From Patescibacteria group bacterium (lineage in GTDB: Bacteria > Patescibacteriota > Microgenomatia > UBA8517), in contig JBGSJG010000004.1 of the NCBI GenBank assembly GCA_041742135.1, positions 299,773-363,772 on the forward strand: a stretch of DNA of 64,000 nt. Direction: 5' to 3'. Shown in pieces: positions 1,809 through 63,652 of the stretch (its first letter is position 1; every line of letters begins with the position of its first letter). Position numbers and translations under genes: made by a program. The notes beneath the pieces were generated by a model. The model was not told the DNA's origin and ran no database searches. It saw nothing but the letters and a program-made list of their open reading frames with translations.

Positions 1809-2099
1809 TTGATTATGTTTGACAAACTACAACAAGGAAAAGAGTTACTAAAGATGCGCTCGCAGGCCAAAGCGCTACAAAAACAGCTCGCGGAGGTTAC
1901 AGAAACTGTAGAGATGGGCACGGTAAAGGTCAAAGTAACGGCAGATCAAAAAGTAATTTACATCGAAGATAACGGTGAAAGCCGTGATGAAATTGCAAAG
2001 GCTGTTAACGAAGCCTTTAAAAATGTTCAAAAGAAAGCCGCTCAAAAAATGCTCCAGGAGGGTGGGCTTTCCGGACTTCTTGGGGGGATGGGGAAATAA
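1809..2099 (+). CDS. ybaB: YbaB/EbfC family nucleoid-associated protein
   Basis: 96 aa with the typical YbaB core 'LLKMRSQAKALQKQLAE...VKVTADQKVIYIEDNGE' and a Gly-rich tail. It sits in the conserved dnaX-ybaB-recR order. Confidence 0.85.
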   Translation: MIMFDKLQQGKELLKMRSQAKALQKQLAEVTETVEMGTVKVKVTADQKVIYIEDNGESRDEIAKAVNEAFKNVQKKAAQKMLQEGGLSGLLGGMGK

Positions 2100-5238: not shown

Positions 5239-6060
5239 ATGAGAAAAAAGCTAGTCGCAATATTATTTTTAGTATTTTTAATTTTTCCAGTTGGCGTGGT
5301 GCGTGCTCAGGATGAAGAATTTGATTTTGCTCGCGCTTATCAGGATTACGTTTTTACTGTCGACGTCTACAACAGCGCTCACTCGGAGTATCTTCTTGCC
5401 AAGGCACAATATGCTCAGGCAGGGACGCTGGTTTCTCAGACTCAGGCGCGCGAAGCGACTGTAAAAATGCTCTCTTCTCGAGACGACGTTGTCACAACAT
5501 ATCTGACGGCGGTTCGAATGAAGATGGTCGAGGCTGAAGGAGTTTCCTCGCTGACTAAAAATGGTTTGTTTACAAGGCTAGACGCGGAGATTGCTTGGTT
5601 TCGCGATCACAAAGACAGGCTGGACAGTGCAGGAACCTTGGCGGATTTAGAAGCTGATTCCAAAGAAGCAAGTGATCGTTTTGTGACTTCTGAGCGAATT
5701 GCTTATGAAACTTTGGCCACGATTCCTTTTGGCAAGCTGTCTTTGATGCGCACGCAGGCAAATTCGATTTTGTCACGTATTAACGATAAGGTTTTTCAAA
5801 TTCGCTCAAATGGGGACAAAGATACAGCAATAGTTGAGCGCTGGGCTTTGGAGATCGAGCAGAAAATAACCAGAAGCTTGGATAAAGAGATTGAGGCGCA
5901 GGCATTAATTCCAATTTTTGTTCCGAGCAGGCAAAACAGAAGCCTAGATGTTCGAAAAAATTACACAGATATTATATTTAAGTTGGACGAGTCTAGACAG
6001 TTTTTGCGAGACGCGACAGAATATATGGACGAGATATTAAGAGAAATTACAACAGCATAA
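5239..6060 (+). CDS. hypothetical secreted protein
   Basis: 273 aa with a signal peptide (LVAILFLVFLIFPVGVVRAQ) and an RBS-like 'gaatgagact' upstream. Confidence 0.45.
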   Translation: MRKKLVAILFLVFLIFPVGVVRAQDEEFDFARAYQDYVFTVDVYNSAHSEYLLAKAQYAQAGTLVSQTQAREATVKMLSSRDDVVTTYLTAVRMKMVEAEGVSSLTKNGLFTRLDAEIAWFRDHKDRLDSAGTLADLEADSKEASDRFVTSERIAYETLATIPFGKLSLMRTQANSILSRINDKVFQIRSNGDKDTAIVERWALEIEQKITRSLDKEIEAQALIPIFVPSRQNRSLDVRKNYTDIIFKLDESRQFLRDATEYMDEILREITTA

Positions 6061-10642: not shown

Positions 10643-11311
10643 TTGCATTTAGCGCATTTTGTGGCTACTCGCGAGGCGGGCAACGTGAGTTTCTCGGTTG
10701 GTGATGATCCCAAGAAAGTATTGATTAATCGCGAAAATATCGCGAAGGATTTCGGTGTTTCGCTTGACGCCTTCACAGTCGCTGGCCTTGTGCATGGAAA
10801 CCATGTTGTAAAAGTTAGCGCAAAAACGCGAGGCCGTGGATCCACGAGCCCTCAAACGGTAATTCCCGAGACGGACGCAATGATCACAAATACCCCAGAT
10901 ATATTACTGATGGTTCCGGTTGCCGACTGTGTGCCAATTTTATTTTTTGATCCGATCAAAAAAGCCATAGGGATTGCTCATGCTGGCTGGCGAGGAACAC
11001 TCAAGGAGATTGCTAAGGCAACCGTTAACAAGCTTCACCAAGAATTTAACTGCAACGCGAGTGACATTAAAGTTGGGATAGGCCCGGCAATATGCGTGAG
11101 ACATTACGAGGTTGATGAGGCAGTTTTGCCGGGCGCTCGAGGCAATTTTGATCTGGTTGCCGCCAACAAAATTCAACTTCTAGACACTGGAGTAAAGCCG
11201 CAAAATATTGAAATCATGCCCTACTGCACTTTTGAGCGTACGGATCTTTTTTACTCTCATAGGGCGGAAAAATCTACTGGCCGCTTCGCCACTGGTATAA
11301 TACTTCTGTAG
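10643..11311 (+). CDS. YfiH/PgeF (DUF152) laccase-domain purine nucleoside phosphorylase / peptidoglycan editing factor
   Basis: Family motifs 'FSVGDDP', 'HGNHVVKV', 'DAMITNTP', 'PVADCVPILFFD', 'IAHAGWRGT', 'FYSHR'. The listed ORF starts at 10571, but the homologous region begins near TTG 10643 or GTG 10661. The start is therefore uncertain. Confidence 0.78.
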   Translation: MHLAHFVATREAGNVSFSVGDDPKKVLINRENIAKDFGVSLDAFTVAGLVHGNHVVKVSAKTRGRGSTSPQTVIPETDAMITNTPDILLMVPVADCVPILFFDPIKKAIGIAHAGWRGTLKEIAKATVNKLHQEFNCNASDIKVGIGPAICVRHYEVDEAVLPGARGNFDLVAANKIQLLDTGVKPQNIEIMPYCTFERTDLFYSHRAEKSTGRFATGIILL

Positions 11312-11312
11312 G

Positions 11313-11912
11313 ATGAGAAAACATCCAATCCTGTTTTTGCTGGGTTTTGCAGCTGGCTATTTGCCGGTTCTTTTTTTGTTGTCGCGTGCTAGCTCCAGCC
11401 CTGCGACTGTGTTGGCGGATGAGCCGGCACCTGAAATTATAAGTGTGACACTTGAAACTCACGCGCCCGAGGAAACTGTGGAGCCAGTAGTTTTAGCGGT
11501 AGCCGAGGAGGCGACAACTCCTAGACCGACAGAGTCTCCCACACCTGCACCTCCCACACCTGCACCTTCCACGCCGTCGCCTACAGCTTCACCAGAACCG
11601 ACGCCAACTCCAGACGTCTGGTCGCCTCCGGCGATCGAGCCGATATTTGCCAACTATGCTGGAATGTATAGCGTAGATAAAAATATTTTAGAGCGACTTG
11701 CGAACTGTGAAAGCCATTTTAACGAAAATGCTCAAAATGGCGATTATCTTGGAATGTTTCAATTTTCCACTTCAACTTGGATGAGTTATAGAATGCGCAT
11801 GGGCCTAGACGCAAATCCTGATTTACGCACAAATATCGAAGAATCCATCAAAACTGCGGCATATGTCATTCAGCAACAAGGCGTTTCTCCTTGGCCGAGC
11901 TGCCTAAGGTAG
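11313..11912 (+). CDS. secreted Pro-rich protein with Rpf-like transglycosylase-like domain
   Basis: Signal/TM segment, then a PTPAPPTPAPSTPSP linker. C-terminal 'CESHFNENAQNGDYLGMFQFSTSTW' matches the transglycosylase-like (Rpf) signature 'CESGGN...GGLQFS.STW'. Confidence 0.6.
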   Translation: MRKHPILFLLGFAAGYLPVLFLLSRASSSPATVLADEPAPEIISVTLETHAPEETVEPVVLAVAEEATTPRPTESPTPAPPTPAPSTPSPTASPEPTPTPDVWSPPAIEPIFANYAGMYSVDKNILERLANCESHFNENAQNGDYLGMFQFSTSTWMSYRMRMGLDANPDLRTNIEESIKTAAYVIQQQGVSPWPSCLR

Positions 11913-37183: not shown

Positions 37184-37193
37184 TTTTTTTGTG

Positions 37194-37220
37194 GGCGGCC
37201 GCTTTCGGGCGGCTGCCCCG
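37194..37220 (+). terminator. GC-rich hairpin after stress-protein gene
   Basis: 'GGGCGGCCGC-tttc-GGGCGGCTGCCC' forms a ~9-bp stem with one G.U pair, 11 nt after the TAG stop. The T-run precedes rather than follows the stem, so this could be a terminator or an attenuator. Confidence 0.35.
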
Positions 37221-37268
37221 TAAGTGGACTTTGTTGCATGTGCCGGTAAGCGGTGCTATAAATAGTCA

Positions 37269-52687: not shown

Positions 52688-53293
52688 TTATTCTAAAATT
52701 CCTAGGTTTGTTAATTCACGCTCAAGAGTGGAATAATCCTTGTAAAGGACTGGAGTGAAGCCTATCTGAGCGGCGGTTGATAAGCTGTTTTTTGTATCGT
52801 CTATGAATATAAGTTTTGTCATTGGTATGTCAAGCTTAGCCGCGAAGATTTCGAACGCTCTCGGGTGAGGCTTGCTGAATCCAATTTCTGCGGACACAAC
52901 AACTGAATCGAAATGTCTGGCAACTCCAATTTTTTTAATGTTACTTGCAGCTTCTAGATTGTTATTGCTAAGAAGACCGGTTTTATAGCCTTTTTTTCTT
53001 AATTTATCTATCAATTTTAGTAGGGGACGATTAATCTTTTCTTTAGGAAGGTTTCCTAACAGTTTCAATAAATCTTCATACCTATCTTCGACCCCAAGTT
53101 CAGTTAGTACTTTTCTCCACAATTCTTGTTTCGTTAACAGATTGTTATTGAACAAGTGGTTAAATTTGAAGTAGCTACGTTTAAATTCAGTGACGGAAAC
53201 ACCAAGGCAATTTGACACCAATGAATCAAAAGTCGTGCTTGGCGTTCCAAAAACGACTCCACTATAGTCGAAACCTACTGCTTGGTATTTCAT
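52688..53293 (-). CDS. HAD-like hydrolase
   Basis: Listed ORF 52688..53380 trimmed, because its first 29 codons are a translation of the tRNA-Leu gene. Start at MKYQAVGFDYSGVV. Motif III/IV 'LIFIDDTKNS'. Confidence 0.6.
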   Translation of the reverse strand: MKYQAVGFDYSGVVFGTPSTTFDSLVSNCLGVSVTEFKRSYFKFNHLFNNNLLTKQELWRKVLTELGVEDRYEDLLKLLGNLPKEKINRPLLKLIDKLRKKGYKTGLLSNNNLEAASNIKKIGVARHFDSVVVSAEIGFSKPHPRAFEIFAAKLDIPMTKLIFIDDTKNSLSTAAQIGFTPVLYKDYSTLERELTNLGILE

Positions 53294-53297
53294 GGAA

Positions 53298-53386
<89 letters not shown>

Positions 53387-53410
53387 AAATTATCTAATAT
53401 GTTAATCAAT

Positions 53411-53476
53411 GCGTCTGCCAATTCCGCCCGCCTGCAGAAGCTATCGCTTCAGCGATTGCGGGCAGGCCACCCCGGC
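53411..53476 (-). repeat. partial duplicate of tRNA-Leu 5' region (acceptor 5' strand + D-arm) interrupted by 38-nt palindromic insert
   Basis: 'GCGTCTGCCAATTCCGCC' (53411-28) is identical to 53361-78 inside the tRNA. 'GCCACCCCGGC' (53466-76) corresponds to the tRNA 5' end. Between them lies 'cgcctgcagaagctatcgcttcagcgattgcgggcag', which contains the ATCGCT-tc-AGCGAT and GCCCGC/GCGGGC stems. Confidence 0.6.
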
Positions 53477-53488
53477 GCTGCGGCTATT

Positions 53489-53917
53489 TTAGCACAGAAC
53501 ATCACTCAAACGCGCTACTAGCTCATCAAATTTTTTAATTTGAAATTTTCTGATAACCAAATCTTCAGTTTTCCCGTTTGGTTTTTTAAAACGAACAAAA
53601 ATAAAGCTATGCCAATATCCACCGGGCTTAAATTCGTAGTATTCAATTTTATTAAAGGGCACATTGTGTGTGGTAAAAGACACGCTTGAAAAAGAAATAT
53701 TCACATCTATGCTATCTTCGCGAATTTCTATGGCAGGTTTACGAAATCGTGATATCTCAAACATCAAATAGAGGAAAACTGAAACAGAGATTGAAAATAA
53801 AATAATTTTTGGAATATTTTCACTAGTACCTTGAGACCTTATGAACGAAACAAGAGTGAAGATAAATTCTGCAATAACTTTAAGAATGACAAAAATTTTG
53901 GTTTGATAGAACTTCAT
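53489..53917 (-). CDS. hypothetical membrane protein
   Basis: 142 aa, 2 TM N-terminal. Confidence 0.4.
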   Translation of the reverse strand: MKFYQTKIFVILKVIAEFIFTLVSFIRSQGTSENIPKIILFSISVSVFLYLMFEISRFRKPAIEIREDSIDVNISFSSVSFTTHNVPFNKIEYYEFKPGGYWHSFIFVRFKKPNGKTEDLVIRKFQIKKFDELVARLSDVLC

Positions 53918-54399
53918 GTAGGTTTTTGATAATTAACTGCCAAGTTTGGTAGCCTGTCTTTTATTAGTTTAATAACGTTTTCAAATTCAAAAATATCGTT
54001 ACGGGTCAGGTAGCATTTCTTTATTTGTGTTCCGTGCGCGTACTGGATAACCAGAATTTCGGGTTTATCTTTTTTATCGAGTTTGACCTCAGCAAGCATC
54101 ACAGATGCAAAGCCAATTATGTGTGTTGTAAATATGAATCGCCACTTTATGATTGGGTCATACATCTGCCTTATTGTCATCGAGTCGCTTATGATCTCGA
54201 CGATAGGCAGGGAAGAAAGATAGGCCTCATACAAAAATGCTCCAAAAAAGGCTAAGCAAATGGCGATTAAGACTAACGCCCGAGCAGGATCTTCAAGTAT
54301 TCCAAAAGCAAAGCCGCCAGCCAAAACGCTTCCAATAAGAATCGGCAAAAAGCGCGCTCTGCCTCTGAAAAAGGTTACATACCCGTAGCTATTTGCCAT
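53914..54399 (-). CDS. hypothetical membrane protein
   Basis: Frame of listed ORF 53914..54504. I trimmed it to MANSYGYV to avoid overlap with divergent efp. Confidence 0.35.
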   Translation of the reverse strand: MANSYGYVTFFRGRARFLPILIGSVLAGGFAFGILEDPARALVLIAICLAFFGAFLYEAYLSSLPIVEIISDSMTIRQMYDPIIKWRFIFTTHIIGFASVMLAEVKLDKKDKPEILVIQYAHGTQIKKCYLTRNDIFEFENVIKLIKDRLPNLAVNYQKPT

Positions 54400-54423
54400 A
54401 AATTGAGTATAATACATAGTGCA

Positions 54424-54981
54424 ATGATTGTTGCGAGTGATCTTAAAAATGGCGTTGCTTTTTTGGATGGTGGCAAGCCTTACAAAGTAGTTAAATATAG
54501 CCATATCAAGATGGGCCGTGGCGGAGCTACTGTACGTGTGATGGCACGTAATCTTGAAAATGGTGAGCTGGTCGAAAAAACATACGACTCCAAAAACAAG
54601 GTGGACGAGGTATCAACTTCCAAAAAGCGAATGCAATACTTGTACAATGACGGCAAAAATGCTTCTTTTATGAATCCGATGACTTACGAGCAGACAGAAA
54701 TTGAGCTTGATGTTTTGGGAGATTCGATTTTGTTTATCAAAGAGGGTAGTGAGGTGGATGTTTTATATTGGGACGACAAGGCTCTGTCTGTCGACATTGC
54801 TCCAAAAGTTGAACTTGAAGTAGTTGATACTGCTCCGGGAGTAAAAGGAAACTCGGCCGCAAATATTTACAAGCCTGCAAAACTTGAGAACGGCCTTGAA
54901 ATAAAAGTTCCGCTTTTTATAAAAATAGGGGACAAAATCCGTGTTGATACTAGAACCTCTGAGTATATTGAGCGAGCCTAG
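54424..54981 (+). CDS. efp: elongation factor P
   Basis: 'MIVASDLKNGVAFLDGGKPYKVVKYSHIKMGRGGATVRV' is the EF-P KOW-like N-terminus. Two OB domains follow. Confidence 0.88.
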   Translation: MIVASDLKNGVAFLDGGKPYKVVKYSHIKMGRGGATVRVMARNLENGELVEKTYDSKNKVDEVSTSKKRMQYLYNDGKNASFMNPMTYEQTEIELDVLGDSILFIKEGSEVDVLYWDDKALSVDIAPKVELEVVDTAPGVKGNSAANIYKPAKLENGLEIKVPLFIKIGDKIRVDTRTSEYIERA

Positions 54982-62725: not shown

Positions 62726-63652
62726 ATGACACTCCCCGCCCTAGTGGATGATTTTCTTGCTTACCTCCGAGTAGAGAAGGGCTCCTCTCCCCTAACGACG
62801 CGTAACTATTTACATTATTTGTCTAGGTTCATTTCATGGCTAAAAGACAACAATATCGCGACCTCCGAAAGCTCTCTTACTCAAGAAAACATCCGAAAAT
62901 ACAGGCTATACTTAAGCTCACTTAGTGATGGCCGAGGGGGAGTTTTAAGCCAAAAGACTCAGGCCTACCATGTAATTGCGATCCGGTCCTTCCTTAAGTG
63001 GCTCATTAAAAATGACCACGACGTTTTGGCTCCAGACAAATTAGACCTTCCCAAAATTCGTGAAAGGCAAGTGAGCTTTCTTTCTGGGGACCAAGTGGAT
63101 CGCTTGCTGTCAGCGCCGAGTTTAAGCTCGATTGTGGGTAAACGAGATAAAGCAATACTGGAGCTTTTGTTTTCAACGGGGCTGCGTGTTTCGGAGCTTT
63201 GCAAGCTTGATCGCGACAAGCTTGATCTGGACAGGCGCGAGTTTGGGATTACCGGCAAAGGAGGGCGGGCGAGAGTAGTTTTTCTCTCTGCTCGAGCCGC
63301 TGAGTGGATTTCGTTGTATCTTGCGGCCCGAAAAGATCACTACACTGCGCTTTTTATCCGCCATAAAGGAAAAATTGATCCATCCGTTGAGGATGAGAAA
63401 ATGCGCCTCACTCCCCGATCGGTTCAAAGGCTTGTGAAAAAATATGCCCATAAAATGAAAATTCCAGTCGAGGTGACGCCACACGTCCTTAGACACAGTT
63501 TTGCTACAGATTTACTCGTAGCGGGGGCCGACCTTCGAAGTGTGCAGGAGATGCTTGGGCATAAGAATGTAGCTACTACCCAAATTTATACTCATGTTAC
63601 TAATAAAAGACTAAAAGAAGTTTATGAAAATTTCCACGGTAAAGGGAAGTAG
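62726..63652 (+). CDS. xerC: tyrosine site-specific recombinase XerC/XerD family
   Basis: N-terminal SAM-like core-binding domain. C-terminal 'RHSFATDLLVAGADLRSVQEMLGHKNVATTQIYTHV' contains the R..H..R..Y catalytic residues. Confidence 0.85.
   Translation: MTLPALVDDFLAYLRVEKGSSPLTTRNYLHYLSRFISWLKDNNIATSESSLTQENIRKYRLYLSSLSDGRGGVLSQKTQAYHVIAIRSFLKWLIKNDHDVLAPDKLDLPKIRERQVSFLSGDQVDRLLSAPSLSSIVGKRDKAILELLFSTGLRVSELCKLDRDKLDLDRREFGITGKGGRARVVFLSARAAEWISLYLAARKDHYTALFIRHKGKIDPSVEDEKMRLTPRSVQRLVKKYAHKMKIPVEVTPHVLRHSFATDLLVAGADLRSVQEMLGHKNVATTQIYTHVTNKRLKEVYENFHGKGK

Follow-up and report, generated by a model that had tools for sequence, protein, structure and literature searches.

The stretch analysed here, 64,000 nt long and hereafter called the window, is placed by its DnaB homologues in Candidatus Woesebacteria / Microgenomates (Candidate Phyla Radiation, CPR; Patescibacteria). 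It contains a single tRNA gene, tRNA-Leu(CAA), and just upstream of that gene a partial second copy of the same tRNA, split by a 40-nt hairpin that we call element H; our favoured reading, which we consider rather probable, is that a small selfish cassette, of a kind that enters CPR tRNA genes in their 5′ part, left this region behind as a relic without a nuclease gene. The intact gene lies at 53298-53386 on the minus strand (ARAGORN; Rfam RF00005, 55.3 bits), and the features upstream of it are all on the same strand: an AT-rich 24-nt spacer (ATTGATTAACATATTAGATAATTT, 53387-53410), in the place where full cassettes at other loci hold an open reading frame (ORF) for a GIY-YIG nuclease; an exact copy of tRNA nt 11-26, up to the end of the D-arm (CGGAATTGGCAGACGC, 53411-53426); H itself in tRNA orientation (CCTGCCCGCAATCGCTGAAGCGATAGCTTCTGCAGGCGGG, 53427-53466); an exact copy of tRNA nt 1-10, the ancestral 5′ end of the tRNA (GCCGGGGTGG, 53467-53476); and, 9 nt upstream of the fragment, a -10-like box, TAAAAT (53486-53491), which overlaps the stop codon of a membrane-like 142-aa ORF without a Pfam match (53489-53917). 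Read along the minus strand, the order is TAAAAT-agccgcagc-GCCGGGGTGG-[CCTGCCCGCAATCGCTGAAGCGATAGCTTCTGCAGGCGGG]-CGGAATTGGCAGACGC-attgattaacatattagataattt-GCCGGGGTGGCGGAATTGGCAGACGC...(tRNA).

The duplication is seen as two exact direct repeats in a repeat search, an 18-mer (53361-53378 = 53411-53428) and an 11-mer (53376-53386 = 53466-53476), which jointly give tRNA nt 1-26 (10 + 16 nt), with H located exactly between nt 10 and 11 and without a target duplication. A preliminary description of this DNA had reported a partial 5′ copy of tRNA-Leu, split by an insert and lying upstream of the intact gene, and ARAGORN, Rfam and the exact repeats bear this out. It was also right that the fragment is co-oriented with the tRNA, although the locus has to be stated as lying on the minus strand, and that the insert is palindromic, although its 38 nt become 40 nt once the boundaries are set from about 100 other copies (the boundary it gave falls within a 3-nt GGC ambiguity at the junction); the duplicated part of the tRNA is 26 nt rather than about 28, and the gap to the intact gene measures 24 nt (53387-53410), not 25. 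Both of its nested stems, GCCCGC/GCGGGC and ATCGCT/AGCGAT, are present, but the last C of GCGGGC is a base of the tRNA part.

Comparison with contigs whose DnaB is 84-92% identical to that of the window shows that the fragment is specific to this lineage. The closest relative (L002; DnaB 92% identical) has an identical tRNA-Leu(CAA) and no 5′ fragment; its tRNA is preceded by gagTATAATagcgggtat, that is, TATAAT, 9 nt and then the tRNA, where the window has TAAAAT, 9 nt and then the fragment. Four further contigs (L005-L008) and L004 carry a diverged tRNA-Leu(CAA), with TAAAAT 9-13 nt upstream and again no 5′ fragment, and in the relatives as a group TATAAT or TAAAAT stands 9-13 nt upstream of position +1 of the intact tRNA. 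Since the -10-like box precedes the fragment in the window and the intact tRNA in the relatives, the fragment is the ancestral start of the tRNA; from the position of the box we infer that TAAAAT acts as the -10 element of the tRNA promoter. Relative to L002, the window thus has a 90-nt insertion made up of H, tRNA nt 11-26, the spacer and tRNA nt 1-10, and an occupied and an empty allele exist in close relatives with identical tRNAs. The two copies are identical at 26 of 26 positions, which indicates a recent event. A simple tandem duplication of 90 nt was rejected as a model (the two 90-nt units have only their first 11 nt in common).

These comparisons bear on whether the arrangement is a functional cis-acting RNA, that is, a structured tRNA leader, a processing or regulatory element, a terminator of the upstream ORF or a tRNA-derived small RNA. 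H does form a stable stem-loop, and it lies in the presumed tRNA leader, right after the stop codon of the upstream ORF; we nevertheless regard such a function as very unlikely, since the element is absent from the closest relative with its identical tRNA, occurs elsewhere in either orientation and in contexts that are unrelated and partly coding, matches no Rfam family, and leaves the fold of the whole leader unremarkable (z = -0.89). The terminator that had been proposed for the upstream minus-strand gene is contradicted by the lack of a T-run after the stem on either strand and by a terminator scan of 53250-53650 that found none, and nothing supports the tRNA-derived small RNA also proposed. 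The fragment is missing in the relative and the palindrome has many copies elsewhere (see below), so that what is found is not a leader conserved throughout the lineage, and a mobile-element origin is favoured.

Other copies of the palindrome, for which the preliminary description had suggested a search, are numerous and look mobile: a 23-nt core of H matched 115 metagenome stretches, representing 100 unique contexts, mostly CPR-like, from many projects (Rifle-type and other groundwater, Hainich, activated sludge, sediments). The block conserved across these 100 contexts (GC 28-53%) measures exactly 40 nt, with 92-100% conservation per position outside the selected core and a sharp fall to background at both edges; the copy in the window equals the consensus at 40 of 40 positions. 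With H taken out, the flanks join into the exact uninterrupted junction, both in the window and at 13 further loci (20 of 20 junction matches). A MITE-like element (miniature inverted-repeat transposable element) of the classical kind, as had been proposed, is not supported, as there is no target-site duplication. Within the window H stands alone: the 38-mer insert has one match at no more than three mismatches (none in 100 shuffles), and exactly one site, H, obeys the end rule of the family described below (none in 20 shuffles), which rules out chance. A GC-rich (>70%) stem-loop at 37189-37230 (GGGCGGCCGCTTTCGGGCGGCTGCCC), intergenic between two plus-strand ORFs, does not fit that rule. H was not found in plasmid or phage collections, and its palindrome core had no match among viral contigs; the 17-nt junction of fragment and insert had 23 matches there, which we rejected as chance matches (GC-rich contigs, no tRNA-like context).

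An artefact of assembly or contamination in a metagenome-assembled genome, such as an adapter-like sequence or a collapsed repeat, is highly improbable in our view. The window does come from a lineage known from such genomes, the near-invariance of H recalls a synthetic sequence, and no second assembly of the exact locus was found, either by exact look-ups of two flanking proteins and the window DnaB or by a contig scan seeded with the neighbouring HAD hydrolase (only an unrelated Akkermansiaceae match). Against this, H and its variants recur with the same architecture in independent NCBI, JGI, ENA and Logan assemblies, one locus was recovered from five samples (L148-L152), the plasmid and phage collections lack H, and H lies inside contigs, where it interrupts tRNA fragments at precise positions.

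H is a two-fold pseudo-symmetric hairpin. H and its variants obey the rule 5′-X Y C ... G rcX rcY-3′, in which X and Y are GC-rich 4-mers: CCTG and CCCG in H, CCTG and CCAG in the variant L090a, CTCG and CCCG in L090b, and CCCG and CCCG in L153. The changes between variants are compensatory, preserving both the end rule and the two strand-specific stems. Each strand, read 5′ to 3′, begins with two 4-mers and CA, followed from nt 11 on by a stem of 4-5 bp with a 3-5-nt loop; the top-strand stems of the variants are ATCGC/GCGAT, GATGC/GCATC and GTAGC/GCTAC, and the bottom-strand stems GAAGC/GCTTC, AAAGC/GCTTT and AACGC/GCGTT. As single-stranded DNA (ssDNA), H has a predicted fold of -11.5 kcal/mol for the top strand (z ~-2.9) and -10.1 kcal/mol for the bottom strand (z ~-2.5). 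The ends could be described as 9-nt inverted repeats with two mismatches, but are better read as block-swapped 4-mers. This pseudo-symmetry fits the presence of H in both orientations. The flanks vary: A on the left in 59%, or T on the right, together 76%, with no fixed tetra- or pentanucleotide. Two family members can share one target: in L090 (contig Ga0116171_10065127, ~1930-2050, plus strand) two 40-nt hairpins that differ from each other interrupt the same tRNA-Leu 5′ fragment ahead of a GIY-YIG ORF, at nt 10|11 and in the D-loop. In L158, tRNA nt 8-18 are missing from the fragment, as might result from recombination between two inserts of this kind.

H copies are enriched near tRNA genes. 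An intact tRNA lies within 100 nt of 25 of the 100 copies, compared with 3.2% of the bases in the same loci (p ~1e-15), and within 400 nt of 34 (8.6% of bases, p ~1e-12); 13 isotypes are involved. An uninterrupted copy of the junction is found within 700 nt in 31 of 98 contexts, H then sitting in a partial gene copy beside an intact one. The targets duplicated in this way are tRNAs, the 3′ end of 5S rRNA (L036/L066) and the 3′ ends of protein genes (L044/L135, where the protein ends in ...VVEFKIGT* and is presumably YchF-like, judging from these C-terminal residues). For tRNAs the disrupted copy is 5′ of the intact gene in 19 of 23 cases, and H is inserted after nt 6-12 in 15 of the 23, after nt 18-19 in six, and after nt 35 and nt 75 once each; 17 of 18 distinct tRNA sites lie directly 5′ of a T in the tRNA sense. 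H is opposite to the tRNA in 19 cases and in the same orientation in four, the window among the latter (p = 0.003). The remaining two thirds of the H copies are solitary, and some of these sit in the loops of other palindromic repeats; flanking stems of at least 7 bp are found at 6.3% of H sites and 0.9% of controls; as this enrichment is modest, we rejected a general targeting of hairpin loops as the main rule.

Disrupted and intact copies are separated by spacers of two size classes, 4-74 nt and 264-292 nt (with an outlier of 448 nt in L059), and each 264-292-nt spacer checked carries a GIY-YIG ORF of about 83 aa; such an ORF, co-oriented with the tRNA, occupies the gap between the copies at 15 distinct loci. 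The partner gene at these loci is therefore a nuclease and not the cognate integrase that the preliminary description had proposed to look for. The proteins are 79-88 aa long, have PF01541 (GIY-YIG) as their sole domain (E ~1e-15) and share the motif MSKFYYTYVLRSLKD..LYIGWTDDL..R...HN.G.V.ATK.R.P..LVYYEAC....AI.REK.LKTGFGRKYL. All eight cases linked to H itself have the same order in the tRNA sense: promoter side, tRNA 5′ fragment, H, 8-22 nt of tRNA, ORF, intact tRNA. In the complete cassette the fragment is usually broken after nt 7, 10-12 or 18-19 by a hairpin of 36-44 bp, and the intact tRNA begins 0-16 nt past the stop codon of the ORF or overlaps it; the total is about 0.33 kb, against 90 bp in the window. 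The hairpin lies inside the 5′ fragment in all 15 GIY-YIG cassettes, 54-80 nt upstream of the GIY-YIG domain, and L100 has H on both sides of the ORF. Public records call several of the 79-88-aa proteins (P0123, P0149, P0167, P0205, P0207) "excinuclease ABC subunit C", a label that their small size and single domain mark as a mis-annotation.

The association holds when the loci are approached from the protein. The nuclease clade comprises more than 1100 clusters at 90% identity, and the named clusters belong to CPR groups (Levy-, Vogel-, Roizman-, Shapiro-, Woese-, Beckwith- and Berkelbacteria). Four homologues were picked by protein similarity alone, regardless of H: P0207 (L147, tRNA-Lys), P0123 (L148-L152, tRNA-Asn), P0149 (L153-L157, tRNA-Gln) and P0205 (L158-L163, tRNA-Asn). 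All four (L147, L148, L153, L158) show the cassette architecture with variant hairpins, the intact tRNA lying 0-4 nt past the stop codon or overlapping it. At two loci with short spacers (L113, L142) the ORF is clearly truncated to an N-terminal stump, so ORF-less forms do arise by deletion. In L158-L163, from ~1525 onwards, downstream of tRNA-Asn, contigs that share the cassette diverge right past the tRNA 3′ end, where some encode a large serine recombinase; an integrative element may thus be using the 3′ end of this very tRNA.

The window holds every part of this cassette except the ORF, in whose place the 24-nt spacer is found, and the spacer would then mark a lost ORF; the element in the window is probably an inert, decayed derivative. 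Several observations weigh against deriving it from a cassette. There is no GIY-YIG ORF anywhere in the 64-kb window, and the spacer resembles the flanks of the ORF so weakly that its derivation from an ORF cannot be shown (a likeness to the 5′-UTR or the C-terminal codons of the GIY-YIG genes of L117 and L144 was discarded as too short and AT-rich to count). The insertion site in the window, GG|CG, is an exception to the rule of insertion 5′ of T. A scan with the sigma-70 consensus found no promoter in the region, so that promoter use and co-transcription are inferred. No tRNA is close to 66 of the 100 H copies, and the majority of these 66 have neither a duplication nor a nuclease gene, so that H can spread alone. 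Proteins beside identical hairpins are only 58-73% identical, and their similarity does not track the hairpin variant; this mismatch fits independent mobility of the hairpin at least as well as co-inheritance (co-evolution of hairpin variants with the neighbouring protein was rejected, as a nine-protein identity matrix showed no co-clustering). Finally, a GIY-YIG nuclease is a hydrolytic enzyme, an activity that would not by itself insert DNA or duplicate the target.

Much of this could also be explained if H were an independent miniature mobile hairpin, similar to REP or PATE elements, mobilised in trans by an enzyme of unknown identity and preferring tRNA-like or hairpin DNA; copies would accumulate in tRNA pseudo-fragments only because hits in intact essential genes are lethal, and the duplication of tRNA-Leu would be a separate event, caused by invasion of a free-standing GIY-YIG homing endonuclease or by repair. 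We hold this to be a possible but unlikely account. It gains from the copies away from tRNAs, which are often in palindromic repeats or terminator-like loops; from the modest but real enrichment of flanking stems; from discrete, identical variants that recur across loci whose nucleases have diverged; from the two different hairpins in the single fragment of L090; and from the restriction of duplications to essential genes (tRNA, 5S rRNA, protein 3′ end). It does not account for the hairpin in the 5′ fragment of 15 out of 15 GIY-YIG cassettes, including the four picked regardless of H; moreover, no other candidate for a mobilising gene was seen beside H, and the Ssn nucleases (see below) offer a precedent that couples the same kind of nuclease with the same kind of repeat.

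If the cassette reading is correct, its parts suggest how such an element might work. Placed between the resident tRNA promoter and the regenerated tRNA, the ORF would be transcribed from the tRNA promoter; with next to no upstream room of its own, and with the native -10 box of the tRNA ahead of it, it is probably expressed in this way. RNase P would then free the tRNA from a co-transcript of fragment, hairpin, ORF and tRNA. By analogy with the Ssn nucleases, the hairpin would be the probable ssDNA binding site of the GIY-YIG enzyme, which would nick nearby. A hairpin lodged within the old tRNA fragment would destroy that copy of the target, and the intact copy would differ in its upstream context. 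Integration of a fragment-hairpin-ORF unit by a Campbell-type or homology-facilitated event would give the order observed, and would explain why only crossovers on the 5′ side are viable. In the window, tRNA-Leu(CAA) is expected to be made now with a structured leader of about 90 nt from the ancestral promoter. Tentatively, and with less assurance than for the window alone, H and its 83-aa GIY-YIG partner might form an unrecognised class of autonomous mobile elements of about 0.33 kb, whose nuclease would recognise the 5′-XYCA-hairpin motif on each strand as ssDNA and nick at the element borders; the elements would home to the 5′ part of tRNA and other structural-RNA genes, capture the promoter for their own expression and regenerate the gene behind them, and solo hairpins, like that of the window, would be their non-autonomous or decayed offspring, passed between CPR lineages.

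Of the systems described so far, the nearest is the pair of Ssn nuclease and NTS repeat (Chenal et al., Nat Commun 2025, PMC11893778), in which single-domain GIY-YIG enzymes bind flanking hairpin repeats solely as ssDNA and cut a few nt upstream; its authors had already noted an IS-like layout of repeat, gene and repeat, and their paper does not mention tRNA. The cassette shares with it a single-domain GIY-YIG protein of ~80-100 aa beside a hairpin repeat of 20-50 nt that is also present elsewhere in the genome, a repeat conserved in sequence and structure, and a flanking hairpin of cognate size in 15 out of 15 cassettes (36-44 nt), on both sides in L100 as in the IS-like layout. The ORF itself shares 38% identity (E = 1e-11) with an Ssn-like protein of L087, from the same metagenomes, whose gene is flanked by NTS repeats, and its nearest PDB entries are UPF0213 proteins. 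In contrast to the NTS, however, H is unrelated in sequence to the NTS/SRM consensus CGTCATTCCCGCG...GCGGGAATC (GTCATTCC...GGAATC), is pseudo-symmetric with its motif on both strands where the NTS is oriented, and is embedded in a tRNA 5′ fragment, the ORF being followed by a regenerated tRNA; L065, L075 and L087 contain true NTS-like repeats as separate features. There, a different GIY-YIG ORF of ~95 aa, which is Ssn-like, stands between classical repeats of the GTCATTCC...GGAATC type (L087 ~1250-1660; L075 ~5340-5720; L065 ~11300-11700), and H is sometimes inserted in the loops of NTS-like repeats (L060, L075, L122, L126).

Other systems resemble parts of the cassette. The small hairpin elements of the IS200/IS605, PATE and REP/RAYT kinds share the absence of a target duplication and a presumed action on ssDNA, and the short (4-nt) cis-complementary end blocks of H recall the pairing of guide and cleavage site. 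H differs from these elements in lacking an HUH (Y1) transposase, its associated gene being a GIY-YIG nuclease; in having no fixed tetra- or pentanucleotide target but only a preference for sites 5′ of T; and in being a single 40-bp unit without distinct left and right ends. Integrative elements that target tRNA genes are kb-sized, rely on tyrosine or serine recombinases and give rise to a second copy of the 3′ end; like the cassette, they keep the tRNA functional by carrying a replacement end and leave a partial duplicate, whereas the cassette duplicates the 5′ end, has a nuclease as partner and measures about 0.33 kb. Seg enzymes are larger than the product of the cassette ORF and have DNA-binding domains. 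The free-standing GIY-YIG homing genes of the T4 SegB type (PMC2330249; PMC13096335) likewise place a nuclease gene among or next to tRNA genes, with occupied and empty alleles in close relatives and local segmental duplication, but have no cognate hairpin repeat, split tRNA fragment or promoter capture; the 2008 report on SegB describes mostly 2-nt 3′ overhangs. The rRNA genes of CPR bacteria contain GIY-YIG-encoding and short uncharacterised insertions (Tsurumaki et al., J Bacteriol 2024, PMC11270868), which share with the cassette the host group, GIY-YIG ORFs in non-intron insertions of structural-RNA genes, positions at the tops or bases of stem-loops, and many short ORF-less forms, but concern rRNA genes, the main text naming no hairpins, palindromes or tRNA. 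In the literature, which we covered incompletely, we found no description of H, of its symmetry or of a cassette of tRNA 5′ fragment, ORF and tRNA; the tRNA-invading architecture and the two-fold pseudo-symmetric hairpin thus appear undescribed.

The neighbourhood of the locus bears on a different origin, the scar of a decayed tyrosine- or serine-integrase element that used tRNA-Leu as its attB. The tRNA lies among ordinary chromosomal genes, with a metallo-beta-lactamase-fold protein, DnaB and a HAD hydrolase on one side and two small ORFs of unknown kind, EF-P, a DksA-type zinc finger, a pseudouridine synthase and a Na+/H+ exchanger on the other, and the sole recombinase of the window is a XerC/D-like gene (62726-63652). 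An integrase scar would suit the classical role of tRNA genes as integration sites; the variability of the locus, with the HAD hydrolase (52688-53293, minus strand) between DnaB and the tRNA in the window and unrelated ORFs of 69 aa and 106 aa in the relatives (L002 6348-6557; L005 5361-5681); and the 3′ tRNA-Leu fragment found downstream of the tRNA in L005-L008. It is largely refuted, and we give it hardly any weight: the duplicate is the 5′ end (nt 1-26) and not the 3′ end, only 24 nt separate the repeats, the XerC/D-like gene is 9.3 kb away across EF-P, DksA-type and pseudouridine-synthase genes whose order is kept in the relatives, and the same architecture occurs elsewhere with GIY-YIG genes and without integrases. 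The remnant attachment site envisaged in the preliminary description falls on these same grounds.

The relatives differ further around the tRNA. Between DnaB and tRNA-Leu each relative has a different set of genes, which makes the tRNA locus a hotspot of variation; L003, for example, has a thymidylate kinase at the corresponding place and no tRNA. Upstream, L002 has a 159-aa ORF at the position of the 142-aa ORF of the window, and no ORF between this membrane-protein ORF and EF-P. In the window a 196-aa ORF (53914-54504, minus strand) overlaps the EF-P gene (54403-54981, plus strand) by ~100 nt, which probably means that the start of one or the other is wrongly placed. The 3′ tRNA-Leu fragment of L005-L008 (Woesebacteria RIFCSPHIGHO2_01_FULL_44_21 and related contigs; L005 5762-5822, minus strand) lies 5 nt downstream of their own tRNA-Leu(CAA), and its end, GACCCCCACCCCCGGCAC, matches the 3′ end of the window-type tRNA at 16 of 18 positions. 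It is apparently split in the T-loop by another GC-rich nested hairpin of 35 nt, CCTGCCCCGTGTCCCGCAGAGCGGGATTTACGGGG, whose start resembles H and which does not obey the end rule of the family.

The cassette model accounts for recurrent 5′ half-copies of tRNAs upstream of intact tRNAs in a large and poorly understood branch of the bacteria, and the logic it suggests is the reverse of that of classical tRNA-integrating elements: such a cassette would enter at the 5′ end, seize the promoter and rebuild the gene. H is near-invariant across hosts of 28-53% GC, with the adjacent protein diverging by 30-40%, which implies either very recent exchange among CPR bacteria or an unusually strict protein-DNA code. 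If the pairing of nuclease and hairpin is true, the site-specific ssDNA nucleases of the Ssn kind would gain new specificities and a symmetric site, which may be of interest for ssDNA tools; if these are autonomous elements, they would be unusually small for elements that encode a nuclease. For genome annotation, the cassettes yield pseudo-tRNA fragments and ORFs mislabelled as subunits of an excinuclease. The copy in the window is itself a relic, yet it points to a widespread and apparently undescribed element.

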